A stretch of 38,348 nt of DNA. Origin: a virus (Duplodnaviria; Heunggongvirae; Uroviricota; Caudoviricetes). Made by a program: the position numbers and the translations under genes. The stretch lies in the IMG/VR virus record IMGVR_UViG_2609459797_000003. The stretch is one strand, 5' to 3'. This document shows positions 1,459-35,211 of this stretch, one piece after another. Under the pieces are notes generated by a model. The model was not told where the DNA came from. It saw nothing but the letters and a program-made list of their open reading frames with translations, and ran no database searches. Each line of letters opens with the position of its first letter. The stretch's first letter is position 1.

Positions 1459-2622
1459 TTACACATCATTAGTACCTTCCTTATTTTTTGACTGGGACAA
1501 ATTTGGGACCGATGGGTTCAGGATCGAGTCTATTTGCCGTGCGTGTTCGGTAAGGTGATTAGGTGCAAGGTGAGCATATCGACGAACCATTTCGATAGAC
1601 TCCCAGCCTCCCATTTCCTGTAACACTGACAACGGGACTCCGGCTTGAACCAGCCAACTTGCCCAGGTGTGTCTCAAGTCGTGAAATCTGAAATCATCAA
1701 TACCAGCCCGTCTCAGCGCCGCTTTCCAGGCTGTGTTTGCGTCATACCGCATCTTCCTTACTGTTGGCGCTTTCGTTCCGTCTGGTTTGGTACAGCTTTC
1801 CTTGTACACAAATACCCAACGGTGATGATTCCCGATTTGTTTTTTCAAAACGCGACATGCAGTATCATTCAGCGCAACGCCGATTGCGCGGTTTGATTTA
1901 CTCTCTTCTGGGTTTATCCATGCCACCCGGCGCTGCATATCTATTTGTTGCCATTCAAGGTTGATGATGTTCGAGCGTCTTAAGCCTGTTGCCAGTGCAA
2001 ATTCAACAACAGACTTTAATGGCTCCGGACATTCATCAATCAGCCTTTGTGCTTCATGGGGCTCCAGCCAGCGGATCCGTTTATTCTTTGGTTGAGGCAC
2101 TTTAATAATTGGTGCCTTATCCAGCATTTTCCATTCACGCTCTGCGGCTCTTAGTAGGGCCTTTATAAATGAAAGATGCGTAGCCTTCGTTGCAACGGAC
2201 GCTGGTTTTGGCGTGTATTCTGGAACAGGTTTCCCTTTTTTTCTGCATGCTTCTGCCCTGAGTTTCCAGTTTTCCTCATGACGCCGGTTCGTCATTTTCT
2301 GCATTGCTGAATAAATTTTTGATTCAGTAATGTCTCTTAGTTGCATTCCTGCGAAATGTTGAAGCCAGAATCCGATCCGGCTTTTGTCATCGTCCAGTGA
2401 TTTTTTATGTGCTTTCTCTTCAAGCCACCTGACACACGCTTCCTCGAACGTTATATCAGGTATTTCACCAAGTTTGCTGACCCGCCATGCTTCAGCCTTT
2501 AGCTTGTCATGGAGTTCTGTCGCCTGCCTTTTGTCCTTTGTTCCAAGAGACTGTTTAAATCTTTTACCGTTCGGCAATGTGAAACTGGCGTACCATATTT
2601 CACCTCTGCGGAAGAGTGACAT
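1459..2622 (-). CDS. phage tyrosine integrase
   Basis: 387 aa; N-terminus '[14 protein letters not shown]...' typical of prophage integrases; C-terminal '[39 protein letters not shown]' carries the R..H..R..Y catalytic signature; stop lies 14 bp from the tRNA 3' end. Confidence 0.9.
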
Positions 2623-2852
2623 TTTCTTTCCTCTGTTATGCCATCACCCGCGCTCACCTGGACAGTATGCAGCGGAGACTGAAGCGCCGCAATGCAGGCT
2701 TGTCGTGTTGTGAGGTAAGGAGATTTATTCTTAGTGGGATCTTTGCGTGTTGCCTGAAGACGCCCTGTGCGTATCCAGTTAATGGCAGTCGGTCTGGATA
2801 TCTTGAGAAAATGACAGGCCTCATCGAGTGTGAGGCTGTATGGCTCCATTAT
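2499..2852 (-). CDS. excisionase-like HTH DNA-binding protein (Xis/AlpA-like)
   Basis: Internal start '[31 protein letters not shown]' is a classic excisionase-type HTH; position directly upstream of int. Its 3' end overlaps the int start by ~120 nt in another frame, so the true C-terminus is uncertain. Confidence 0.6.
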
Positions 2853-3154
2853 TTCACCTCTTGCTGTGACATTGTTGAAAAATGGATACCAGCTCGTTGC
2901 TGCCAGACGATCCAACCGAGAGTCATATCCCATGCCATGTATTCGTTATCGCCGTTTTTTGCTCTCCGACGATCTACTAAGTCACCGAAACGCTTTTCCA
3001 TGAATAATTCATAAGCTTCGCGTTCATCTGGTTCTACTTCCAGAGATAGGAGTGCGATTTCATAAGCACGGCGCTCAATATCGTCTCGCACGTCAAGGCT
3101 GCTGATACGCTCTTTAATTTCTTTAATCAGTTCTTTGTCGGTAAAAGTGGTCAT
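2849..3154 (-). CDS. hypothetical early-left phage protein (YfdT-like position)
   Basis: 101 aa ORF, ATGA overlap with xis start, co-oriented in early-left operon; acidic small protein, no recognised domain. Confidence 0.5.
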   Translation of the reverse strand: MTTFTDKELIKEIKERISSLDVRDDIERRAYEIALLSLEVEPDEREAYELFMEKRFGDLVDRRRAKNGDNEYMAWDMTLGWIVWQQRAGIHFSTMSQQEVK

Positions 3155-3516
3155 TATGCTCCAGCCTCCGGTGCTTTTGGCATTACTGCCCAGTGAGTGA
3201 TATTGACGTTTTCAAGGTCCCCGACCTGAAATGTCCACTGCCATTCTCCGGTTTCTTTTTGTCCCCAGGTGTACCAGAGAGAACGCCAGCCAATTAGCCA
3301 GCCTTCTCCGTTAGCATCGAATAACAAAACACTTTCATTTGCTGGTGGCAGTTCAGTTGACACTGGTATTACTTTGTTTTCCTGTGCTGCACATTTAGCT
3401 TCAAGCGCATCGAATTTACGCACCAGGTATTCAGCATCTGTTTCATTTACTTTCAGATCTCGCGGTACACATCTCCCACGAAGAAACCCTTCCATTTCGA
3501 AAACATTCATGCGCAT
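3154..3516 (-). CDS. hypothetical phage protein (Trp-rich C-terminus, DUF551-like)
   Basis: 120 aa ORF tightly packed in operon; 'GWLIGWRSLWYTWGQKETGEWQW' Trp-rich tail seen in prophage DUF551-type proteins. Confidence 0.5.
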   Translation of the reverse strand: MRMNVFEMEGFLRGRCVPRDLKVNETDAEYLVRKFDALEAKCAAQENKVIPVSTELPPANESVLLFDANGEGWLIGWRSLWYTWGQKETGEWQWTFQVGDLENVNITHWAVMPKAPEAGA

Positions 3517-4043
3517 TTGCGTAACTCCGATAACTCGTTAAAGCGTTCCATAAACATCCCGTAGGCATGGCCCGGTGCCAGTGGAATCACGTTGAACATT
3601 TCTGTTGCCGGGATACCTTCCAGTACAGGCCAGAAAGAGCCATCATCAAGCCCGAGATCGCGGCGTTCGGTTGCCAGCATGATGAGATCGGCATATTTCA
3701 CGGGCGTACTCATAACCGGGGGTAACCCGTATTTCTCACGGATTACGGCGTCTATTTTTTCTTCCATTTGTTTATAGTCAGGAAGAAGGCGTTTCAGTGG
3801 TGCGGGAATGTCCTGGCAATACGCTTCTGTTGCATCATGCATTAACGCTTCAAAAGCAAATTCCTGCGGCACCAGCTGGCTGCAAAGAACCGCATGTTGG
3901 GCGACGCTGTAGAAGTGCGAAAGATGACCGGCAAAGCGACAGATATTTGAAAGGGAAACCGCGATATCGTTAATATCGATGTCGTCTTTATTTATCCTGT
4001 CATAATAAAAATGCTTCCCGGAAAAAGTTTTAATAAATGACAT
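3507..4043 (-). CDS. HD-domain phosphohydrolase, 5'-deoxynucleotidase-like (YfdR/YfbR family)
   Basis: Start chosen at 'MSFIKTF' (GGAG Shine-Dalgarno 6 nt upstream on the minus strand). Motifs 'SVAQHA' and 'HDATEAY' match the H...HD metal-binding signature of HD-domain nucleotidases. Confidence 0.7.
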   Translation of the reverse strand: MSFIKTFSGKHFYYDRINKDDIDINDIAVSLSNICRFAGHLSHFYSVAQHAVLCSQLVPQEFAFEALMHDATEAYCQDIPAPLKRLLPDYKQMEEKIDAVIREKYGLPPVMSTPVKYADLIMLATERRDLGLDDGSFWPVLEGIPATEMFNVIPLAPGHAYGMFMERFNELSELRKCA

Positions 4044-5423: not shown

Positions 5424-5860
5424 TTTGCTGCTCCTCATCATATCGACCCTGCAAGGCCGATTAGTTTCTCCACAAAACAGAGAAGAACACCTGCGGTGGC
5501 AGCCGCCCGGATGGATTGGGTTATGAGCCCGTCGTCCGGTGATGCTCTTCTCTGTTTTGTAAAAAGGACGGTACCAGCCGGAAGCAAGGGTACAAGCTGG
5601 TACCGCCAGGACTACACACAGCATAAAGTTGTGGTGCCGGGTGCCTCCCGGTGCCTGGCGAAGGTTGCACACCAGGCGGGTGGGTATCCACAGAAGGTCG
5701 ACTGTCAGCCTCAACCTTAACCCGCGTGCGCTGAGCCGCATTCACCACAACGCTAAGGATTCTCTTTGGTTGAAAATACTTAGCTGTTATGTGCCTGTCT
5801 TTTCACCACTTCAGGCTCGGTGGTATCCTTTTAAGCCCGTATACATAAAAGGAAAATCAA

Positions 5861-6106
5861 ATGACTTTTGATGAAAAAGAACTTGATAATGCAATTAATA
5901 AAATCATCGTAACGTCGCTCTTTTCCTGTCTCAGCGACACTCAGCAGAAACAGTTCTACGAATCGGCTTTCAACATGATCGAGCGTTGTTGTTTCTGCGA
6001 TGCCGACGAGTTACCTGAAAAAATCAGGAAACAGTTGGCTGATGCTCTTCGAGTGCGACTTTCTGACCAATTTTCTGAAATGTGCTCTCCGAATTTGGAC
6101 AAATAG
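5861..6106 (+). CDS. hypothetical 81-aa protein transcribed rightward, opposite to the early-left operon
   Basis: ATG preceded by 'aaaaggaaaatcaa' (AAGGA Shine-Dalgarno, ~7 nt spacing); Cys-rich 'ERCCFCDADELPEKIRKQLADALRVRL'. Confidence 0.45.
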   Translation: MTFDEKELDNAINKIIVTSLFSCLSDTQQKQFYESAFNMIERCCFCDADELPEKIRKQLADALRVRLSDQFSEMCSPNLDK

Positions 6107-6320
6107 AAAAAGGCCATTTCCATTCAGGGTCTGATGGAAATACTTCAGCCTGTTCCAAAGCACGGCGTAAAGAGAACACAACTCCAGCCATAATCTGATG
6201 TTTCCCATTGGTCCAGCTATCGCCGCTCTGATCTACAGGGGCGGCTATGTCGTATGACCAAACGACTTCACAGTTATTGTTTAAAATCTGGACTTTCATT
6301 TCATACACCTGCTTTAACAT
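6024..6320 (-). CDS. hypothetical first gene of early-left operon (uncertain)
   Basis: 98 aa ORF downstream of the putative OL/PL region; 3' end overlaps the convergent + strand gene by ~80 nt and contains a hairpin, so at least part may be non-coding. Confidence 0.3.
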   Translation of the reverse strand: MLKQVYEMKVQILNNNCEVVWSYDIAAPVDQSGDSWTNGKHQIMAGVVFSLRRALEQAEVFPSDPEWKWPFSICPNSESTFQKIGQKVALEEHQPTVS

Positions 6321-6416
6321 GAGTGCCTAGTGGCACAACATGACTCAACGAATCATCCTGGACTTCATATGCCCCAGGCGGCTACTTCGTGGGCGTCCTG
6401 CCTGTTCGTTGTTTCG

Positions 6417-6454
6417 CTTGGGTACATTATGTATCTCAAAGGTACATTGTCAAG
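6417..6454. promoter_or_regulatory. putative OL operator region (repeated GGTACA half-sites)
   Basis: 'cttgGGTACAttatgtatctcaaagGTACAttgtcaag' shares the GTACA half-site with the palindrome between repressor and cro. Confidence 0.4.
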
Positions 6455-6455
6455 T

Positions 6456-6479
6456 ATAAAAAAACCTGCCGAAGCAGGT
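6456..6479 (-). terminator. rho-independent terminator downstream of repressor gene
   Basis: Stem 'acctgc'/'gcaggt' with 'cgaa' tetraloop; the A-run 6456-6463 on + gives a U-tract on the minus-strand transcript immediately after the stem; 14 bp past the repressor stop. Confidence 0.55.
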
Positions 6480-6492
6480 TCATAAACATTGA

Positions 6493-7167
6493 TTAGGCTT
6501 TGATTTTGTATCTTCTTGGTTTTCCTGAGAAAATCACTGTACCAATTATAGAGCAATTACCGTTGATCTTAATGTAAGGCTCAGGCCAGTTTGGGTTTAA
6601 CGCTTTGAGATAACGCTGTGTCCCATCTTCTATCAACCTTTTGAAGGTGGTTTCACCTGTATCGTGCATCAATGCAATAACGTCGTCACCGTGGCAGGCA
6701 GGTACTTCAGGATCGACAAAAATCATGTCTCCCGGGCGGTACTCATCAATCATTGAATCACCTATCACCCGCAAGATATAAGTCATTTCCCCACAGGGTA
6801 CAGGGCAGGGATACGTTTCTGCTGTGCTCAAATCAACCTCAGAATATCCAACTTCTTTCCATGCTCCGGCCTGTACCCATGATATGACAGGGACTAATGT
6901 GATTTGTTTATTAGTGATTGAAACATCAGGTTTTTTTGTGATGTTCGTTGTCTGGTGTTCTTGATCGAGCCATCCGACAGGCAGGTCGAAACATTTTTCG
7001 ATGTGTCGTGCCATGCTGTCACCGATATTTTTAGTAGCACCATCTCCCATAAACCTGCTGGTCTGGGTTGGCTCGCGATCAATCATAGTGGCAAAGGAAG
7101 AATTCCCGCCAACACCATCTCTCAGTTTTCTGGCGTTAGACCGCCGGATGTCATGGATTGTTTTCAT
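6493..7167 (-). CDS. CI-like prophage repressor (HTH + S24 LexA-type peptidase domain)
   Basis: 224 aa; C-terminal 'ILRVIGDSMIDEYRPGDMIFVDPE...ALMHDTGETTFKRL' is the Ser/Lys autopeptidase signature of CI/LexA; divergent from a Cro-like gene. Confidence 0.85.
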   Translation of the reverse strand: MKTIHDIRRSNARKLRDGVGGNSSFATMIDREPTQTSRFMGDGATKNIGDSMARHIEKCFDLPVGWLDQEHQTTNITKKPDVSITNKQITLVPVISWVQAGAWKEVGYSEVDLSTAETYPCPVPCGEMTYILRVIGDSMIDEYRPGDMIFVDPEVPACHGDDVIALMHDTGETTFKRLIEDGTQRYLKALNPNWPEPYIKINGNCSIIGTVIFSGKPRRYKIKA

Positions 7168-7257: not shown

Positions 7258-7458
7258 ATGAAAGCGTATTGGGACTCTTTAACCAAAGAACAGCAGGGCG
7301 AGTTGGCCGGAAAAGTTGGCTCAACACCTGGCTACTTACGGCTGGTTTTCAATGGCTATAAAAAAGCCAGTTTTGTGCTGGCTAAAAAACTTGAGCAATG
7401 CACGTCAGGTGCAATTACGAAATCTGACTTAAGACCGGATATCTATCCGAAAGATTAG
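7258..7458 (+). CDS. Cro-like HTH regulator (YdaS-like)
   Basis: 66 aa from ATG with GGAGGT Shine-Dalgarno; 'LAGKVGSTPGYLRLVFNG' HTH and C-terminal 'LRPD' motif; divergent from repressor. Confidence 0.75.
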   Translation: MKAYWDSLTKEQQGELAGKVGSTPGYLRLVFNGYKKASFVLAKKLEQCTSGAITKSDLRPDIYPKD

Positions 7459-7489
7459 CAGAACACTTTCAATTTTTAACCACAGAACG

Positions 7490-23827: not shown

Positions 23828-24234
23828 AAATTCGTCAGGCGCAGACCAGCGCAACCTACATTCTGCCGGACCCCGGTGAACTGAATAAACGCGTCCTGAT
23901 CCGCCAGCGGGTGGATATGCCCGCGGATAACTTTGGCGTGGAGTCTCAATACCCGGTTACGTTCCGGACATGGGCGAAGGTTATCCAGACCAGTGCCACC
24001 ACCTGGCAGGAAACCGCGCAGACCGGGGACGCCATCACCCATTACATCACCATTCGTTACCGCCGGGGGATCACTGCTGATTATGAGGTGGTCTGTGATG
24101 ACAGTGTGTACCGGGTGAAACGTCAGCGTGATCTGAACGGGGCGCGGCGCTTTCTGCTGCTGGAGTGTACGGAGCTGGGCGAATGTAGGCAGAGTCACGG
24201 AGGCAGCAATGGCGACTCCCTTTTTTCACGTTGA
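23824..24234 (+). CDS. head closure / head-tail joining protein
   Basis: 136 aa, ATGA-coupled to the connector; size and order consistent with HK97 gp7/gp9-type proteins. Confidence 0.55.
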   Translation: MKIRQAQTSATYILPDPGELNKRVLIRQRVDMPADNFGVESQYPVTFRTWAKVIQTSATTWQETAQTGDAITHYITIRYRRGITADYEVVCDDSVYRVKRQRDLNGARRFLLLECTELGECRQSHGGSNGDSLFSR

Positions 24235-24715
24235 TGTTCAGCAGCCCGCCGAGATGCGCTTTAACCGCGCCCGTGTCCGGCGGGCGTTTGTCACGATTGG
24301 GCAGCGTCATATGCGTGATGCCCGTCGGCTGGTGATGCGCCGTGCGCGGTCGGCACCGGGTGAAAACCCCGGTTATCAGACCGGACGCCTGGCTCGTTCG
24401 ATTGGTTATATGGTGCCGAGAGCCAGTAAAAAGCGAGCCGGTTTTATGACACGCATTGCCCCTAACCAGCGCAACGGGAAGGGGAACCGGATGATCTCTG
24501 GTGACTTCTATCCGGCGTTTCTGTTTTTTGGTGTCCGGGGAGGAGCAAAACGTCGTCGTAGTCATCATCGTGGTGCATCCGGTGGCAGCGGCTGGCGACT
24601 GGCTCCACGTAATAACTTCATGGTGGAAACGCTTGAAAAGAACCGCAGCTGGACACGCTATTTTCTGGCGCGGGAATTGCGTAAATCACTGAAGCCGGAG
24701 CGACGACACAGATGA
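24209..24715 (+). CDS. HK97 gp10-like neck protein
   Basis: 168 aa basic protein with 'GRLARSIGY' motif recalled from gp10-family proteins. Confidence 0.55.
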   Translation: MATPFFHVDVQQPAEMRFNRARVRRAFVTIGQRHMRDARRLVMRRARSAPGENPGYQTGRLARSIGYMVPRASKKRAGFMTRIAPNQRNGKGNRMISGDFYPAFLFFGVRGGAKRRRSHHRGASGGSGWRLAPRNNFMVETLEKNRSWTRYFLARELRKSLKPERRHR

Positions 24716-25272
24716 AACTGACGCCTGTTATTGCTGCGCTGCGTGCCCGCTGCCCGTATTTTGAAAACCGGGTGGCAGGCGCGGCACAGTTCAAAAATCT
24801 GCCGGAGGTCGGAAAGCTGAGACTCCCGGCGGCGTATGTGGTACCGGGTGATGACTCTCCGGGAGAAAACAAAAGCCAGACCGACTACTGGCAGGAGCTG
24901 AAAGAGGGCTTCTCCGTGGTTGTCATACTGAGTAACGGGCGTGATGAGCGCGGTCAGTTTTCCTCGTATGATGTGGTGGACGATGTCCGGCAAATGCTCT
25001 TTAAGGCCCTGCTGGGCTGGAACCCGGAAGCGTGCGGTAACCCGATTACCTATGACGGCGGCACGCTGCTGGATCTGAATCGTCATGAGCTGATTTATCA
25101 GTTCGATTTTTCGGTCATCAGCGAGCTGACTGAAGACGATACCCGCCAGCAGGATGATCTGAACAGTCTGGGTGAACTGCAAACGCTGGCGATTGATGTT
25201 GATTATCTCGAGCCCGGTAACGGGCCTGACGGCGATATCGAACATCACACCGAAATAACCCTTCCTTCCTGA
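24712..25272 (+). CDS. Mu-like tail-neck protein (tail terminator/sheath stabiliser candidate)
   Basis: 186 aa, ATGA-coupled, immediately upstream of the sheath gene; no specific motif recognised. Confidence 0.45.
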   Translation: MKLTPVIAALRARCPYFENRVAGAAQFKNLPEVGKLRLPAAYVVPGDDSPGENKSQTDYWQELKEGFSVVVILSNGRDERGQFSSYDVVDDVRQMLFKALLGWNPEACGNPITYDGGTLLDLNRHELIYQFDFSVISELTEDDTRQQDDLNSLGELQTLAIDVDYLEPGNGPDGDIEHHTEITLPS

Positions 25273-25280
25273 GGATCCTC

Positions 25281-25451
25281 ATGTTTGTCAAACCTGTTAA
25301 AGGGCGGTCAGTGCCTGACCCTGCCCGCGGCGACCTTTTGCCCGCCGAAGGGCGAAATGTTGACGAGAACAACTACTGGCTGCGCCGTGAAGCAGCGGGT
25401 GATATCCGGCGCGTGAATAAAAAGGTGAACACCGATGACGATAAGCTTTAA
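25281..25451 (+). CDS. small protein preceding tail sheath (56 aa)
   Basis: 'MFVKPVKGRSVPDPARGDLLPAEGRNVDENNYWLRREAAGDIRRVNKKVNTDDDKL'; overlaps the sheath start; below the ORF-track cutoff. Confidence 0.4.
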   Translation: MFVKPVKGRSVPDPARGDLLPAEGRNVDENNYWLRREAAGDIRRVNKKVNTDDDKL

Positions 25452-26931
25452 CACCATTCCGTCGAATACGCTGGTTCCGCTGTTTTATGCGGAAATGGAT
25501 AACCAGGCTGCGAATACTGCACAGGACAGCGGAGCATCGCTGCTGATTGGTCATGCCAATAACGGTGCAGAGATTGTTGCCAACAGTCTGGTGCTGATGC
25601 CGTCGGCAGACTATGCACGCCAGATTTGTGGTGCGGGAAGTCAGCTGGCGCGTATGGTCGAGGCTTATCGCCAGACAGACCCGTTTGGTGAGCTGTATGT
25701 GATTGCCGTTCCGGAAGCCACAGGCGCGGCGGCAACGGTTACGCTGGCGGTGACCGGGGAAGCAACCGAAAGCGGCACGGTGAATGTCTATGTGGGACGT
25801 ACCCGCGTGCAGGCTCCGGTGACCAACGGCGATAACGTCACGACGATTGCCAGCAGTATCAAAGATGCCATCAATGCCGTTCCGGCCCTGCCGTTTACGG
25901 CTTCATCTTCGGCAGGCGTGGTCACACTTACCGCGCGTCATAAGGGGCTTTGCGGGAATGAAATTCCTGTCAGCCTCAATTACTACGGCTTTGGTGGGGG
26001 CGAAGTGCTGCCAGCGGGCGTACAGATTGCCGTGGCGACGGGTACCGCCGGAACGGGTGCTCCGGTTCTCACCGGCGCGGTGGCTGCAATGGCGGATGAG
26101 CCGTTTGATTATATCGGCCTGCCGTTCAACGACACGGCCTCCGTTAACACGCTGGTGACCGAGATGAACGATACCAGCGGTCGCTGGAGCTATGCGCGTC
26201 AGCTGTATGGTCATGTGTATACGGCAAAGATCGGCACGCTGTCAGAACTGGTGACCGCAGGTGACCAGTTTAACCAGCAGCACATTACCCTGGCAGGGTA
26301 CGAAAAAGAGACCCAGACGCCTGCCGACGAACTTGCGGCAAGCCGTACCGCCCGCGCAGCGGTGTTTATCCGCAACGATCCGGCACGTCCCACGCAGACC
26401 GGTGAGCTGGTGGGTATGCTGCCTGCGCCGAAGGGGAAACGGTTCACGATGACCGAACAACAGACCCTGCTGTCTCATGGCGTGGCAACGGCGTATGTCG
26501 AAAGCGGGGTACTGCGCATTCAGCGTGATGTCACCACGTACAGGAAAAACGCTTACGGGGTTGCGGATAACAGCTACCTCGACAGTGAGACACTGCATAC
26601 CAGCGCGTATGTACTGCGCAAACTGAAATCCGTCATTACCAGTAAGTACGGGCGTCACAAGCTTGCCAGTGACGGTACCCGCTTTGGTCCCGGTCAGGCG
26701 ATTGTCACCCCGGCGGTGATCAAAGGGGAACTGCTGGCAACCTACCGTCAGCTTGAGCGTGCGGGGATCGTGGAAAACTACGAACTGTTTAAGCAGTACC
26801 TGGTTGTGGAGCGTGATGCCAGCGATCCGAACCGCCTGAACACGCTGTTCCCGCCTGACTATGTTAACCAGTTGCGTGTCTTTGCCGTGGTTAACCAGTT
26901 CCGTCTTCAGTATTCAGAGGAGTCTGCATAA
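25435..26931 (+). CDS. contractile tail sheath protein (Mu gpL-like)
   Basis: 498 aa; 'FNTIPSNTLVPLFYAEMDN' N-terminus typical of Mu-like sheath proteins; followed by the tube gene. Confidence 0.85.
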   Translation: MTISFNTIPSNTLVPLFYAEMDNQAANTAQDSGASLLIGHANNGAEIVANSLVLMPSADYARQICGAGSQLARMVEAYRQTDPFGELYVIAVPEATGAAATVTLAVTGEATESGTVNVYVGRTRVQAPVTNGDNVTTIASSIKDAINAVPALPFTASSSAGVVTLTARHKGLCGNEIPVSLNYYGFGGGEVLPAGVQIAVATGTAGTGAPVLTGAVAAMADEPFDYIGLPFNDTASVNTLVTEMNDTSGRWSYARQLYGHVYTAKIGTLSELVTAGDQFNQQHITLAGYEKETQTPADELAASRTARAAVFIRNDPARPTQTGELVGMLPAPKGKRFTMTEQQTLLSHGVATAYVESGVLRIQRDVTTYRKNAYGVADNSYLDSETLHTSAYVLRKLKSVITSKYGRHKLASDGTRFGPGQAIVTPAVIKGELLATYRQLERAGIVENYELFKQYLVVERDASDPNRLNTLFPPDYVNQLRVFAVVNQFRLQYSEESA

Positions 26932-27287
26932 TGGCCCGTATCGGGGGAACCTGTTATTTCAAAATTGACGGTCAGCAGCTATCGCTGACCGGCGGCATTG
27001 AGGTGCCCATGAACAGGACGGTCAATGATGACATCATCGGCCTGGACGGTTCAGTGGACCGCAAGGAAACTCACCGTGCGCCTTATGTCAAAGGGACCTT
27101 CAAGGTGCCGAAGAATTTTCCGGTGAGCAAAATCACCTCGTCTGATGAGATGACCATCACTGCCGAGCTGGCGAACGGTCAGGTCTATGTACTGTCGTCT
27201 GCCTGGCTGCACGGCGAAGCGAACCATAATGCCGAAGAAGGCACGGTTGATCTTGAGTTCCACGGTGAAGAAGGGGATTACCAGTAA
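26931..27287 (+). CDS. tail tube protein (Mu gpM-like)
   Basis: 118 aa, TAATG-coupled to the sheath gene; canonical sheath-tube pair. Confidence 0.8.
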   Translation: MARIGGTCYFKIDGQQLSLTGGIEVPMNRTVNDDIIGLDGSVDRKETHRAPYVKGTFKVPKNFPVSKITSSDEMTITAELANGQVYVLSSAWLHGEANHNAEEGTVDLEFHGEEGDYQ

Positions 27288-27556
27288 TGAAAGAGCTTGA
27301 GTTAAAGAAACCGATTACTGCTCATGGCGAGACACTCTCCGTACTTGAGTTTGATGAGCCCACCGGGAAAGATGTCCGCGAGCTGGGGTATCCCTACCAG
27401 ATGAATCAGGATGAGTCAGTCAGACTTCTGGCGCATGTGGTATCGAAATACATTGTGCGGCTGGCGAAAGTGCCGCAAAACTCTGTCGACCAGATGTCTC
27501 CGGCAGACCTGAATGCTGCGGCGTGGCTTGTGGCTGGGTTTTTCCTCCAGGCCTGA
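27287..27556 (+). CDS. tail assembly chaperone
   Basis: 89 aa between tube and tape measure; an overlapping -1 frame ORF continues to the tape-measure start. Confidence 0.6.
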   Translation: MKELELKKPITAHGETLSVLEFDEPTGKDVRELGYPYQMNQDESVRLLAHVVSKYIVRLAKVPQNSVDQMSPADLNAAAWLVAGFFLQA

Positions 27557-27697
27557 CGGCTGAATACCTCACTGATCGCTTCTTTGACTGCGCCAGTTAC
27601 TGGCGCATTAATCCCTTCGAATTGCTGAATATGCCGATCAGTGAAATTCCCTTGCTGGTCAGTCAGGCAAACAGGATAGAGCAGGAGAAACGCACAC

Positions 27698-29530
27698 ATG
27701 GCTGAATTTGAGCTTAAGGCGTTGATCACCGGTGTCGACAGACTTTCTCCCGCGCTGTCGAAAATGCAAAAGAAAATCCGGGGATTTAAACGCCAGGCGG
27801 AAGAAGCATCACAGGGTGGGCTGGCGCTTGGTGGCGGACTGGCAGCGGGTCTGACGCTTTCCCTGAAATCTTATGCCGATCAGGAAAACGCCGCCACCGG
27901 GCTGAAAGTCGCCATGATGGATGCGAACGGCGAGGTCGGAAAGAGCTTTCAGGGCATCAATAAACTGGCTATTGGCCTGGGTAACCAGCTACCCGGTACA
28001 ACGGCTGATTTCCAGAACATGATGCAGATGCTGGTGCGTCAGGGGATCCCGGCAGAAAATATTCTTGGCGGTGTGGGTAAAGCGACAGCTTATCTTGCGG
28101 TACAACTAAAAAAAACACCGGAAGCGGCTGCTGAGTTTGCTGCAAAGATGCAGGATGCTACCGGAACGGCGTCAGAAGACATGATGGGGCTGTTCGACAC
28201 TATCCAGAAGGCGTTTTATCTGGGCGTTGACGATACCAACATGTTGTCCTTCTTCACTAAAACCAGTTCTGTTCTGAAGATGGTGAACAAGGACGGTCTT
28301 CAGGCTGCACAGAGCCTTGCCCCCATCAGCGTCATGATGGATCAGATGGGGATGAACGGGGAGTCGGCAGGTAATGCCCTGCGAAAAGTTATCCAGTCCG
28401 GATTAAGCGTTAAGAAAATCAGGGACGTCAATAAAGTTATGGCCCGTCAGAAACTCGGGGTACAGCTCGATTTTACTGACGGCAAAGGAAGTTTTGGCGG
28501 TCTTGATAACATGTTTAAGCAACTGGCAAAGCTGCGAAAACTTACCGACGTTAAGCGAACAGGTGTACTTAAGGCAATATTTGGTGATGATGCCGAAACC
28601 CTTCAGGTGGTCAATGCGCTGATCGATAAAGGAAAGGATGGTTACGATCAGATCCAGCAAAAGATGAATAAACAGGCCAGCCTGAATAAACGTGTTCAGG
28701 CACAGCTTGGTACGCTGTCCAACCTGTGGGAGGCAATGACGGGGACCGCAACTAACGGCCTTGCGGCTATTGGCGGCGCATTTTCTGGTGACGCCAAAAA
28801 TATCACGCAATGGCTGGGGGAGTTGGGGGAAAAATTCACGAAGTTTGCGGATGAAAATCCCCGGGTTATTCGCGCCGTCGTCGGGCTTGCTGCCGGTCTT
28901 GCGATTCTGAAACTGGGATTGATGGGCGTGGGCAGTGCCATCAGCATTGTCAGCAGGATCATGTCGATGACGCCGATTGGCATGATTGCGACGGCGATAG
29001 CCCTGGCTGCGGGATTAATTATCACTAACTGGGATGTTGTCGGACCTTATTTCAAGAAGCTCTGGGAAACCATTGGTCCTTATTTTGAGGCTGGCTGGGA
29101 ACTCCTTAAGAAAGTTTTTGCCTGGTCGCCGCTGGGGATGGTGATCAATAACTGGGGGCCGGTTGTTAAGTGGTTTCAGGATATGTGGGACAAGCTGAAG
29201 CCAATTATTGAGTGGTTTACCGACAGTTCCGGTGACACGGTCGATGCCATTAACTCTGCGCAGTGGGGCGCGGGTGCTTATGATGCTTATGGGACGGGAA
29301 TACCGGCACGGGGATACACTCCTTATCCGGCGGTGGATCCGGCTCAGGCAAACAACGCCTCCGATGCCACAGGCTCGAATCCCTTCATGATTAATAAAGC
29401 TACCGCGCCAAAAGTTGATGGTGAGATCAAGGTATCATTTATAAATATGCCACCAGGTATGCGGGTTACGGAAACACGCTCCAGTGGCATTGATATAAAT
29501 CACGATGTTGGCTATACCCGATTTTGGTAG
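27698..29530 (+). CDS. tail tape measure protein
   Basis: 610 aa; Ala/Gly-rich with hydrophobic central segment; tape-measure position. Confidence 0.85.
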   Translation: MAEFELKALITGVDRLSPALSKMQKKIRGFKRQAEEASQGGLALGGGLAAGLTLSLKSYADQENAATGLKVAMMDANGEVGKSFQGINKLAIGLGNQLPGTTADFQNMMQMLVRQGIPAENILGGVGKATAYLAVQLKKTPEAAAEFAAKMQDATGTASEDMMGLFDTIQKAFYLGVDDTNMLSFFTKTSSVLKMVNKDGLQAAQSLAPISVMMDQMGMNGESAGNALRKVIQSGLSVKKIRDVNKVMARQKLGVQLDFTDGKGSFGGLDNMFKQLAKLRKLTDVKRTGVLKAIFGDDAETLQVVNALIDKGKDGYDQIQQKMNKQASLNKRVQAQLGTLSNLWEAMTGTATNGLAAIGGAFSGDAKNITQWLGELGEKFTKFADENPRVIRAVVGLAAGLAILKLGLMGVGSAISIVSRIMSMTPIGMIATAIALAAGLIITNWDVVGPYFKKLWETIGPYFEAGWELLKKVFAWSPLGMVINNWGPVVKWFQDMWDKLKPIIEWFTDSSGDTVDAINSAQWGAGAYDAYGTGIPARGYTPYPAVDPAQANNASDATGSNPFMINKATAPKVDGEIKVSFINMPPGMRVTETRSSGIDINHDVGYTRFW

Positions 29531-29558
29531 CCAGGATTCCCCTCACATGTATTGCTGG

Positions 29559-29586
29559 TTGTAAGTCATAAATAGAGTGATAGAAT
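29559..29586 (+). promoter_or_regulatory. sigma70-like promoter for tail-operon moron
   Basis: -35 TTGTAA (29559-29564), 16-nt spacer, -10 TAGAAT (29581-29586), ~35 nt upstream of the ATG at 29622. Confidence 0.45.
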
Positions 29587-29621
29587 TAATGCACATTTAG
29601 AAAAATGTTAATAGGCGAAAA

Positions 29622-30152
29622 ATGAAAGGCTATATCACAGCAAGTGTAATTCTTGGAGCAGCGGCTATTTTTTCATCTCTCATAATCTCTGGCAACATCT
29701 CCTTTAAAGATGAACATATTATTCAGTTATCTGGAGGAGCCATAAAACTTGGTGATGTTTATAAAGAAAATAAATTGATAAGTGCAAAGATTATTTTTCC
29801 AGATAATCAGGGTGAACAGATTCTTGTTGTCGACGGCAATCCTGAAAACTTTAAGGAGGATTTTCAGGAGAAATTAAATAAAGTAATAAAAACTTTAAAT
29901 GCGTCAAAGAAAAAAGATGAAGAGAAAGTTAGCCTGGATAATTTAAGTGTTATTGAAGAGTCTAAACTAGAGCTCGTTTCTGCGGTGCGTTACTCTGCTC
30001 AGTATGTTCCTATGTTTACTCTGACGCTGGACAAAAAAGAAATTACCATGCCTAAAAATACGGTAATATTTCCATTTGCCAGCGATGAAACAGCTAAGTA
30101 TTTAAATGAACAACAGCAAAAGTATAAAGATTCGTTGTTTCTGACCCGCTAA
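29622..30152 (+). CDS. AT-rich moron: secreted or membrane-anchored protein of unknown function
   Basis: 176 aa; N-terminal 'MKGYITASVILGAAAIFSSLIISG' signal or anchor; Lys/Asn/Glu-rich; flanked by its own promoter-like sequence and terminator. Confidence 0.55.
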   Translation: MKGYITASVILGAAAIFSSLIISGNISFKDEHIIQLSGGAIKLGDVYKENKLISAKIIFPDNQGEQILVVDGNPENFKEDFQEKLNKVIKTLNASKKKDEEKVSLDNLSVIEESKLELVSAVRYSAQYVPMFTLTLDKKEITMPKNTVIFPFASDETAKYLNEQQQKYKDSLFLTR

Positions 30153-30170
30153 TTAATAAAATTCATTACA

Positions 30171-30204
30171 AGGCCACCTTCTAATAGGTGGCTTTTTTAT
30201 TTTC
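30171..30204 (+). terminator. rho-independent terminator after moron
   Basis: 'AGGCCACCttctaatAGGTGGCTTTTTTATTTT': ~8-bp stem plus long U-tract. Confidence 0.75.
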
Positions 30205-30213
30205 GGAGTGTAT

Positions 30214-31542
30214 ATGACGTGGAAAGACAGGCTTCAGGATGCGTCATTTCGAGGTGTGCCGTTTAAGGTTGAAGAAGAAAGTGCGGGAACCGGTCGCCGT
30301 GTGGAAACACATGAATACCCGAACCGCGACAAGCCCTATACCGAAGATCTGGGAAAAGTCACTTTCCGCCCGTCCATCACAGCTTATGTGGTGGGAGATG
30401 ACTGCTTTGACCAGCGCGATCGCCTGATTGAAGCGCTGAATAAACCCGGTCCCGGCACGCTTGTCCACCCGACATATGGTGAGCTGAAAGTCTGTGTTGA
30501 CGGGGAAGTTCGGGTCAGCACATCGAAAAGTGAAGGGCGTATTGTCCGCTTTGACCTGAAGTTTGTCGAAGCAGGAGAACTCTCTTACCCCACATCAGGT
30601 GCGGCGACGGCGCAGACGCTGATGTCATCCTGTTCTGCACTGGATGACTGCATCAGTGACAGCTTCAGCGGTTTCAGTATCGATGGTGTGGCGGATTTCG
30701 TGCAGAACGACGTTATCGGTAATGCCAGCATAATGCTGGGGTATGTTTCTGATGCGATGAAAGTGGTGGATTCTGCCGTATCGGATGCCGCCAGGCTGTT
30801 GCAGGGGGATATCTCGGTACTTCTGCCGCCGCCATCGTCAGGCAAAAATTTCGTTGAGCAGGTGCAGAAAATGTGGCGTACCGGGAAACGCCTTTATGGT
30901 AACGCCAGCGACCTGGTCACCATGATCAAAACGCTTTCCGGTGTCAGCCTCGGCAGCGATCTGCAACCGCGCGGCGTCTGGAAAACGGACAGTAAAACCA
31001 CCGCCACGGCGACGCAGCAGCGTAACGTGGTTGCCAGCACCCTTCGTACGACCGCAATCAGCGAAGCGGCGTATGCCGTCACCCGATTGCCTGCGCCAAC
31101 AACTTCCGCGGTGATGCAGAATGCCGCAGTGGGGCAGGCAACAACAGCTGCGCAGAGCACCGGCTGGCCTTCCGTCACGCATCCGGCACTGAACAATGCA
31201 CCGGCGGTGAAAAACACGGTTGATCTGCCGACGTGGGAAGAACTGACTGACATTCGCGACACACTGAATACGGCAATTGATAAGGAGTTGTCCCGTACAA
31301 CCAGTGATGCGCTGTTTCTGGCGCTGCGCCGGGTGAAAGCAGATCTGAATGCGGATATCAACACGCGCCTTGAACAGTCTGCACGGATCATTCAGCGCAC
31401 ACCGGATGAGGTTTTACCCGCGCTGGTGCTGGCGGCGACCTGGTTTGATAACGCGGCGCGTGACGCGGACATTATCCGGCGTAATGCCATTACGCATCCC
31501 GGCTTTGTGCCGGTGATCCCTCTGAAGGTGCCAGTGCAATGA
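30214..31542 (+). CDS. DNA circulation protein (Mu gpN-like)
   Basis: 'MTWKDRLQDASFRGVPFKVEEESAGTGRRVETHEYPNRDKPYTEDLG' is the Mu N-family N-terminus; GGAG Shine-Dalgarno. Confidence 0.8.
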   Translation: MTWKDRLQDASFRGVPFKVEEESAGTGRRVETHEYPNRDKPYTEDLGKVTFRPSITAYVVGDDCFDQRDRLIEALNKPGPGTLVHPTYGELKVCVDGEVRVSTSKSEGRIVRFDLKFVEAGELSYPTSGAATAQTLMSSCSALDDCISDSFSGFSIDGVADFVQNDVIGNASIMLGYVSDAMKVVDSAVSDAARLLQGDISVLLPPPSSGKNFVEQVQKMWRTGKRLYGNASDLVTMIKTLSGVSLGSDLQPRGVWKTDSKTTATATQQRNVVASTLRTTAISEAAYAVTRLPAPTTSAVMQNAAVGQATTAAQSTGWPSVTHPALNNAPAVKNTVDLPTWEELTDIRDTLNTAIDKELSRTTSDALFLALRRVKADLNADINTRLEQSARIIQRTPDEVLPALVLAATWFDNAARDADIIRRNAITHPGFVPVIPLKVPVQ

Positions 31543-32618
31543 ACGACAATGTCACGCTACGGGTAAATGGCCGGGAGTGGAATGGCTGGACATCGGTGCG
31601 CATCGGTGCCGGTATTGAACGGCTGGCGCGGGATTTCAGTGTGGAGATCCCCCGCCAGTGGCCGGGAGATGAGGGTATCACCACGCTTCAGCCGCGCATT
31701 AAAAATGGTTCAAAAGTGGAAGTGCTGATTGGTGATGAGCTGGTGATCACCGGCTGGGTGGAGGCGACGCCCGTTCGTTACGATGCCCGTTCGGTCAGCA
31801 CCGGTATTGCCGGACGTAGTCTGACGGCAGACCTGATTGACTGTGCAGCCGAACCGACACAGTTTAACGGACGCTCGCTGGTGCAGATTGCGCAGGCGCT
31901 TGCTGCGCCTTTCGGTATTGAGGTGGTGAACAGCGGTGCGCCGTCGGGTGTTATTCCTGATGTTCAGCCTGATCACGGTGAAACGGTGATTGAGGTAATC
32001 AACAAAATACTCGGTCAGCAGCAGGCACTGGCTTACGACGACCCGCACGGCAGGCTGGTGATTGGCGGTATTGGCTCAACGCGGGCACATACTGCGCTGG
32101 TACTCGGGGAAAACATCCTTTCCTGCGATACGGAGAAGAGTATCCGGGAGCGATTTTCTGTTTACCAGGTGGCGGGGCAGCGTGCCGGAAACGACGATGA
32201 TTTCGGTGAGACCACCACCACCGCGCTGCGGGCCCGCACAGAGGACGCATTTATTGCCCGTTACCGTCCGATGTATATCAGGCAGACAGGGCAGGCCACG
32301 GGGGCAGGCTGTATCGCGCGTGCTGACTTTGAAGCCCGGCAACGGGCGGCGCGGACGGATGAAACCACCTATGTGGTGCAGGGCTGGCGACAGGGTAACG
32401 GTACGCTGTGGCAGCCCAACCAGCGGGTGATTGTCTTCGATCCGGTCTGTGGTTTCGACAATACCGAACTGCTTGTCTCGGAAGTCACGTTTACTCAGGA
32501 CCAGAACGGCACCCTGACGGAAATCCGTGTCGGCCCACCTGATGCTTATCTGCCTGAACCCGAAGCCCCCGGCGCGCGGAAAAAGAAAAAAGCCAGAGTA
32601 CAGGAGGACCCGTTCTGA
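31539..32618 (+). CDS. baseplate hub protein (Mu gpP / P2 gpD-like)
   Basis: 359 aa; 'VTLRVNGREWNGWTSVRIGAGIERLARDFSVEI' matches the family N-terminus. Confidence 0.8.
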   Translation: MNDNVTLRVNGREWNGWTSVRIGAGIERLARDFSVEIPRQWPGDEGITTLQPRIKNGSKVEVLIGDELVITGWVEATPVRYDARSVSTGIAGRSLTADLIDCAAEPTQFNGRSLVQIAQALAAPFGIEVVNSGAPSGVIPDVQPDHGETVIEVINKILGQQQALAYDDPHGRLVIGGIGSTRAHTALVLGENILSCDTEKSIRERFSVYQVAGQRAGNDDDFGETTTTALRARTEDAFIARYRPMYIRQTGQATGAGCIARADFEARQRAARTDETTYVVQGWRQGNGTLWQPNQRVIVFDPVCGFDNTELLVSEVTFTQDQNGTLTEIRVGPPDAYLPEPEAPGARKKKKARVQEDPF

Positions 32619-34636: not shown

Positions 34637-35211
34637 CAAACGATGATTATATCCGTCTGTTGTCGGCACTGTTGCCGCCCGGTCCGGCGTGGTCAGTCAG
34701 CGATCCGGCGATTGCCGGTGCGGCACCGTCATTAACCCGCGTTCATCAGCGTGCGGATGCCCTGATGCGGGAGCTGGATCCGCGCACCACCACTGAACTG
34801 ATAAACCGCTGGGAGCGTCTGTGCGGTCTGCCGGATGAATGTATTCCCGCAGGGACACAGACCCTTCGCCAGCGTCAGCAACGGCTGGATGCGAAGGTTA
34901 ATCTGGCGGGCGGCATCAATGAGGATTTTTATCTTGCACAGCTTGCTGCCCTGGGCAGACCAGACGCCACTATCACGCGATACGATAAAAGCACGTTCAC
35001 CTGCTCATCGGCCTGTACTGACGCAGTGAATGCGCCGGAATGGCGTTATTACTGGCAGGTCAACATGCCAGCCGCCACCAACACCACCTGGATGACATGT
35101 GGCGATCCCTGTGATTCCGCACTGCGTATCTGGGGCGACACCGTTGTCGAGTGCGTGCTTAACAAACTCTGCCCTTCGCATACCTACGTAATTTTTAAAT
35201 ATCCGGAGTAA
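34627..35211 (+). CDS. tail protein, Mu gp48-like (YmfQ-like)
   Basis: 194 aa; precedes the tail fibre as in Mu-like tails and e14. Confidence 0.65.

Follow-up and report, generated by a model that had tools for sequence, protein, structure and literature searches.

In phage lambda, N ends at position 35037 and the convergent sieB gene at 35036, and the two genes abut below PL and nutL. In prophage Rac the genes ydaG-ydaF meet sieB with a 4-nt overlap, and the kilS small RNA and then kilR lie beyond. The sieB genes are 555 nt (lambda) and 489 nt (Rac) in length; SieB, a membrane protein larger than the plus-strand product described below, is expressed in lysogens. Prophage e14 carries the convergent genes ymfI and ymfJ, which overlap by 63 nt. 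Both ymfI-ymfJ and sieB-ydaF are among the convergent excludons that ExcludonFinder reports from E. coli K-12 RNA-seq data (PMC12288877). Late in the SOS response, e14 ymfJ is up by ~4.8 log2 units vs ~2 for ymfI (PMC11002266).

The DNA analysed here, termed the window, is 38,348 nucleotides in length and is an SfV/e14-like lambdoid prophage. Over positions 5700..6500 it shares 99.3% identity with Shigella phage SfV, and with prophages in many E. coli genomes the identity reaches 100%. Two small convergent genes are found in this region, one on the plus strand (5861..6106) and one on the minus strand (6024..6299), and they occupy the lambdoid-prophage slot that in lambda is filled by N and sieB. 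We favor the reading, at a probability of about 0.6, that the two genes constitute a mobile cassette in which a minus-strand gene that is transcribed first from PL is set against an accessory plus-strand gene with its own promoter, with antisense interference between the two.

The repressor gene, which is cI/YmfK-like (6493..7167, minus strand), lies to the right of the cassette and is followed on its right by a cro homologue (about 7259..7459, plus strand). A terminator scan places the intrinsic terminator of cI at 6481..6462 on the minus strand. It adjoins a PL-like minus-strand promoter at 6453..6426, TTGACA-16-CATAAT, which matches the consensus at 11 of 12 positions and has GGTACATT operator-like repeats on its flanks. 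This near-consensus promoter is expected to be PL. It is directly upstream of the gene pair, in agreement with an earlier sequence-only reading of the window that located the pair close below PL.

The minus-strand gene comes first on the leftward early transcript and corresponds to SfV orf33 (phrog_3195). The sequence-only reading described it as a 98-aa ORF, and 6024..6320 does encode 98 aa as an ORF. The proposed start at 6320, however, has to be revised. No Shine-Dalgarno sequence is present there, whereas AGGTG (6306..6310, minus strand) is found 6 nt upstream of an ATG at 6299. ATG 6320 is the start of the SfV annotation and ATG 6299 is the start picked by NCBI PGAP; all diverged homologues begin at the equivalent of 6299, every one with MKVQIL. 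Since the Shine-Dalgarno sequence, the PGAP choice and the homologue starts agree, the gene is most likely 6024..6299 and encodes 91 aa. The in-frame extension upstream (6300..6320, minus strand) is probably 5′ UTR that contains the Shine-Dalgarno sequence. A mosaic junction is also found here, in that homology to phages vB_EcoM-720R4 and SKA5, which have another immunity region, ends at ~6301. This is 2 bases beyond the ATG, and therefore the recombination boundary coincides with the gene start.

Conservation of the minus-strand protein is good over residues 1-66 (6102..6299, through W-x-W-P-F-S). The tail beyond, residues 67-91, overlaps the plus-strand gene and is variable in length, with homologues of 91, 93, 107 or 122 aa. 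The protein is acidic and soluble. Lambda N-type antiterminators have an N-terminal arginine-rich motif. In a comparison with this type, the minus-strand protein, with the N-terminus MKVQILNNNCEVVW, is found to have no arginine in its first 44 residues and no Pfam match.

The plus-strand gene (phrog_3311) encodes 81 aa. Its ORF had been noted earlier as having a good Shine-Dalgarno sequence, and this is borne out by AAGGA at 5849..5853, 7 nt before the ATG; AAGGAAA is kept in the alignment of upstream regions. The protein is acidic and soluble (pI 4.56, GRAVY -0.40). Its AlphaFold2 model shows three helices with a mean pLDDT of 83.7, and a soluble three-helix fold is predicted with confidence. 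Residues 75-81 are missing in some lineages and carry non-synonymous polymorphisms, and pLDDT is <50 from residue 78. Fold searches with the plus-strand protein gave generic helical matches only, and a search against GTDB species representatives gave no match. A Cys-Cys-x-Cys metal site was considered and rejected, as the cysteines are not kept in distant homologues.

Are both open reading frames genes? The sequence-only reading offered as one of its two explanations that one ORF is spurious, i.e. that a single ORF is the gene and the other a chance open frame opposite coding sequence. Chance antisense ORFs of some length are frequent. Existing annotations also differ: the SfV record and the RefSeq/PGAP records inspected call the minus-strand ORF alone and leave out the plus-strand gene, and RAST calls the plus-strand gene alone in phage vB_EcoM-720R4. 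The absence of the plus-strand gene from the former records can be attributed to gene callers, which retain a single ORF where two overlap.

Diverged copies of the cassette, recovered by protein and contig searches, provide an answer. Six lineages are distinguished: the window type, L004/L091/L183, L177/L180 (L177 is from Salmonella enterica), L179, L182 and L189. Both ORFs are open in all six at 66-78% DNA identity; homologues that keep a single open frame, which the sequence-only reading had named as the sign of a chance ORF, are not present among them. The distance from the plus-strand ATG to the minus-strand ATG is exactly 439 nt in all six lineages, with zero indels. Of 5,426 complete E. 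coli genomes, about 425 have the cassette; a megablast search of E. coli genomes with the lineage B locus gave no match.

The register of the two frames is such that codon position 2 of the plus frame is position 3 of the minus frame, and position 3 of the plus frame is position 2 of the minus frame. The codon position that varies thus reveals which frame is selected. Between the window and lineage B, the part that belongs to the plus-strand gene alone (5861..6023) has 15, 4 and 30 differences at plus positions 1, 2 and 3 (binomial P 6e-6). In 6107..6299 the counts are 17, 37 and 7 in the plus frame, equivalent to 17, 7 and 37 in the minus frame (binomial P 5e-6), and the contrast between the two regions has a Fisher P = 9e-11. 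Nei-Gojobori estimates against lineage B are pS 0.83 and pN 0.18 for the plus-strand gene over 5861..6023, and pS 0.87 and pN 0.18 for the minus-strand gene over 6102..6299. For each gene outside the overlap pN is well below pS, which is the outcome of the per-frame dN/dS comparison across homologues that was suggested earlier. If either region is read in the opposite frame, the signal inverts and omega becomes 3.7-7 (A-B and A-B′ comparisons). The same selection pattern is seen in the closer B/B′ pair and in the average over eight sequences. Within the window type, 152 gapless copies fall into 35 haplotypes, and common SNPs are synonymous in the frame that owns the site; the plus-strand gene is frameshifted in three copies and the minus-strand gene in three. 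Both ORFs are protein-coding genes under purifying selection. The explanation that one ORF is spurious is refuted by the open frames of the six lineages and by the third-position bias that each non-overlapping part has of its own.

The 3′ ends of the two genes overlap at 6024..6106 by 83 nt, close to the ~80 nt first estimated. The plus frame dominates within the overlap: over 6023..6088 it has pS 0.59 and pN 0.33, and the minus frame over 6027..6101 has pS 0.32 and pN 0.46. In a sliding window, selection passes from the plus frame to the minus frame at 6071..6100, with the change placed at about 6086-6100, and polymorphisms at 6084-6099 are synonymous in the minus frame and non-synonymous in the disordered plus-strand tail. 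The third-position rate of the plus frame is 0.36 in the overlap vs 0.46 outside, which leaves room for weak dual constraint on the minus-strand tail. The overlap appears to be mostly an unconstrained C-terminal read-through of the minus-strand gene and not true dual coding, and the functional proteins essentially abut near 6090-6100. Because the minus-strand tail varies in length and looks unconstrained, the overlap can be looked at as largely a by-product of abutting genes. The functional minus-strand protein would end near residue 66, and its frame would run on through the end of the plus-strand gene to a chance stop.

An unconstrained minus side is also what one would find if both genes were real but independent, their convergent packing reflecting genome compaction with no regulatory or protein link. 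Two further observations point in that direction, i.e. distant homologues of the plus-strand protein without any partner, and the many unrelated cassettes that share the slot. The distant homologues P0064, P0065 and P0067 have 38-41% identity and stand alone without the minus-strand partner. However, both families are inherited together in all six lineages and in two genomic contexts, and the distance of 439 nt is invariant. In L189, the plus-strand homologue P0062 is 50% identical and is again paired with a minus-strand homologue at the 439-nt geometry, and this copy is located not below PL but upstream of a lysis cassette. The presence of the pair in another genomic context argues that it moves as a unit.

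The slot itself provides further evidence. At least seven further, mutually unrelated cassettes were found in it in a survey of contigs with the PL leader element (described below) and in Kati; the sources are L010 (e14), L192 (SfII), L193 (SfIV), L195 (Kati), L216/L284, L294/L303, L262, L217 and L249/L315. Most of these have a small plus-strand gene that starts 54-63 nt after the promoter-like motif discussed below, and a convergent minus-strand ORF. Overlapping 3′ ends are seen in several, by 23-39 nt in the surveyed contigs and by 63 nt in e14, and some of the minus-strand ORFs may be spurious. What recurs in the slot is the convergent geometry, not the gene content. That at least seven unrelated cassettes have the same convergent layout, several of them with a 3′ overlap, suggests that the arrangement itself is selected, and makes independence of the two genes unlikely, though it is an explanation to be taken seriously.

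Two contigs have additional genes in this region. In L177 from Salmonella enterica, a gene at 2552..3706 separates the repressor gene from the cassette. Its 384-aa product contains HSDR_N (restriction-endonuclease-like) domains, and the gene is a candidate for prophage defence. In lineage B, an additional 105-aa ORF (L004, 3664..3981) is found between PL and the minus-strand gene.

Upstream of the plus-strand gene is a putative sigma-70 promoter at 5802..5829 on the plus strand, with a -35 hexamer TTCACC (5802..5807), a 16-nt spacer and a -10 hexamer TATCCT (5824..5829). It was recognized by alignment of 14 upstream sources, which include solo homologues and the unrelated genes e14 ymfI, SfII_36 and SfIV_36 of the same slot. 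The motif ends 31 nt before the ATG (31-35 nt across aligned sequences), and the pattern TT(A/C)ACC, 15-16 nt, TAnnnT is present in 12 of the 14. Variant -35 hexamers are TTTGCC in two Salmonella-type lineages and TTCCCA in SfIV, and L188 shows no similar motif. The motif also precedes the unrelated plus-strand slot genes ymfI (e14), SfII_36 (SfII) and SfIV_36 (SfIV). Its agreement with the sigma-70 consensus extends to only 8 of 12 positions, and a consensus scan did not detect it; we take it as a putative promoter of the plus-strand gene of modest or weak strength.

The spacer contains an inverted repeat, ACCAC (5805..5809) and GTGGT (5820..5824), with a loop that varies in length and a stem that shows compensatory changes in L182, L185, L189 and L179. 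Slot variants without the plus-strand gene keep the hairpin but have TAGGTA in place of TAnnnT. In Rac (L196, about 2078..2100) an ACCAC/GTGGT hairpin is found ~85 nt upstream of sieB, also without TAnnnT. Its presence in Rac and in slots that lack the plus-strand gene indicates a role beyond that of a putative promoter spacer, and conservation of the motif may partly reflect the hairpin.

It should be pointed out that the SfV record has a 'putative terminator' at a position equivalent to ~5841..5873 of the window. No terminator is found there in the scan, and the plus-strand gene starts inside this interval, at 5861.

On its left, the cassette is bounded by an STnc100-like small RNA region at 5558..5773 on the minus strand, which belongs to the PL transcript and separates the cassette from yfdP. 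The match to RF02076 is full-length and scores 41.4 bits vs a gathering score of 47 (E 6e-07). At its 3′ end the region has a long GC-rich hairpin with a T5 run behind it near 5560, and its 3′ part shows similarity to the KilS small-RNA region of Rac. PGAP labels ~5438..5748 as a 'frameshifted hypothetical protein' pseudogene; this is probably a region of non-coding RNA that was mistaken for a broken gene.

The 5′ end of the PL transcript, upstream of the minus-strand gene, has a structured leader element at 6337..6412 (minus strand) with a core AGGCAGGACGCCCACGAAGTAGC at 6381..6403. The element is present in >100 distinct lambdoid contigs that have different immunity regions, among phages of Escherichia, Salmonella, Klebsiella, Yersinia, Pantoea, Citrobacter and Pectobacterium, and it starts ~15-30 nt, as judged by eye, downstream of PL-like promoters. 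A 26-nt core is invariant, and the outer stem and a second hairpin covary strongly, with 2-6 pair types and 76-100% of sequences paired. Comparison with Rfam gave no match. The element resembles HK022 put in being a structured RNA of ~70 nt directly downstream of PL with covarying stems. Identity with put was nevertheless rejected, as there is no sequence similarity and the window has a single copy; an nhmmer profile built from 100 leader elements has no match in HK022 24000-32000. The element could be a cis-acting PL leader RNA, possibly an antiterminator or processing signal.

The minus-strand gene contains a hairpin at 6112..6150 (dG -14.2 kcal/mol, z -2.6), followed by UUUUUCUAUUUG, with a U-tract at 6100..6111. 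The sequence-only reading had pointed out a hairpin at ~6114-6143 with a T-rich tract on the minus side only. The hairpin is indeed there and is terminator-like on the minus strand only, but it is specific to the window lineage. In eight other lineages the equivalent segment has no fold better than shuffled sequence (z -1.3 to +1.1), and a conserved terminator or attenuator was rejected for this reason. The U-tract is made up of the conserved W-P-F-S codons. In the window lineage, the hairpin and U-tract might attenuate PL transcription inside orf33, or may be accidental.

What we infer from this is an expression programme, antisense interference and, should there be one, a role in exclusion or defence. 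The minus-strand gene would be the first cistron of the early-left PL operon, behind the leader RNA, and would be made only after loss of the repressor or on infection. The plus-strand gene would be moron-like, with a weak sigma-70-type promoter and its own ribosome-binding site, and could be expressed from the repressed prophage. No conserved terminator is found between the genes, and with no terminator each transcript would run antisense into the other gene. On induction, strong PL transcription would shut the plus-strand gene off through collision and RNA duplex formation; in the lysogen, transcription of the plus-strand gene would damp leaky expression of the minus-strand gene, an excludon-type logic.

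The second explanation offered by the sequence-only reading, an antisense-regulated pair in which a lysogen-expressed gene is silenced by PL transcription, thus fits the anatomy and is plausible by analogy. It fits because of the promoter-like motif, the lack of a terminator between the genes, the match to the lambda/Rac layout and the antisense position of solo homologues. One of the latter, in L185, lies between the Q gene and a holin (lysis) gene and is antisense to both, and the solo homologues of L185 and L186 are bracketed by opposing-strand terminators inside late operons. An accessory gene that is expressible as long as the lytic operons stay silent, and that is overrun once these are antiterminated, would be expected to have such a layout. 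Antisense coupling would be the most economical mechanism.

The functions of the two proteins may be approached by positional analogy. On this view the plus-strand protein might have a role in exclusion or defence, and the minus-strand protein one in the early lytic phase or as an antidote. Searches of both against Pfam, PHROGs, PADLOC and NCBIfam gave only PHROG families of unknown function, and profile searches against PDB sequences were uninformative for both. In a literature search on SfV orf33, ymfI/ymfJ, KilS and HK639, functional studies of these proteins were not found. The pair does not resemble a type II toxin-antitoxin system, as the genes are convergent and not co-directional, with no Pfam or PADLOC match.

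Perhaps the two proteins are functional partners. The plus-strand protein, made in the lysogen, would be an exclusion, abortive-infection or toxic effector, and the PL-made minus-strand protein would provide the antidote or self-immunity, with convergent transcription enforcing the switch. Exclusion is combined with self-immunity in P22 sieB/esc and in BstA/aba. The two families strictly co-occur and move together, and the slot is that of the exclusion gene sieB. On the other hand, there is no match in PADLOC, Pfam or NCBIfam, solo homologues of the plus-strand gene do without the partner, and the AlphaFold2 model of the minus-strand protein is poor (pLDDT 52). We regard a partnership of this type in the window as quite improbable. 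A broader proposal is somewhat speculative and also on the unlikely side, though less so: that the cassette belongs to an undescribed class of mobile convergent two-gene modules situated in many lambdoid prophages between the PL leader RNA and an STnc100/KilS-type RNA, whose small-protein partners, one prophage-expressed and one PL-expressed, e.g. an exclusion effector and a lytic-phase antidote, have a fixed 3′ overlap that would act as a switch to mutually exclusive expression.

The reading as a mobile cassette with antisense interference provides a compact system in which one can ask whether convergent transcription couples the lysogenic and lytic programmes. The slot, in which the lambda N/sieB layout recurs, is possibly a source of new prophage accessory functions, e.g. 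exclusion or defence. At the level of annotation, a strongly conserved 81-aa gene is missing from SfV and from the RefSeq/PGAP E. coli records inspected and calls for correction, and this holds even if the two genes are independent.

The cassette can now be compared with the known systems. As in lambda and Rac, it has the same position relative to the repressor gene and PL, and the first PL gene(s) face a convergent gene; the STnc100-like region can be compared with kilS of Rac. The plus-strand gene has the position of the SieB family, being antisense in the PL operon and convergent with the first PL gene. The proteins are different, however. The plus-strand protein is unlike SieB: it has no match to this family in Pfam at E <= 1 or in NCBIfam, its PHROG is one of unknown function, and at 81 aa and with a predicted soluble fold it has neither the size nor the membrane character of SieB. 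The minus-strand protein is unlike N, YdaF and YdaG. The overlap is longer than in lambda or Rac, and the pair travels as one cassette, even outside the PL operon (L189).

With e14 ymfI/ymfJ the cassette shares the slot, the convergent orientation and the conserved flanks, i.e. the hairpin/promoter motif and the PL leader; yet the proteins are unrelated, which indicates a cassette swap and not orthology. The likeness to excludons, which are convergent genes whose transcripts overlap and whose expression is mutually exclusive, lies in the lack of a terminator between the genes, the transcript overlap in the window being deduced from gene layout; the difference is that in the cassette even the coding regions overlap. 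The plus-strand gene resembles a moron in that it is small, has its own promoter-like motif and runs against the surrounding operon, with solo homologues that are bracketed by terminators. It differs in that the paired gene has no downstream terminator and ends inside its partner. The arrangement, an accessory gene facing the first PL gene as in lambda N/sieB, is thus a known one, and what is new is that it is formed here by two uncharacterised, co-inherited families.
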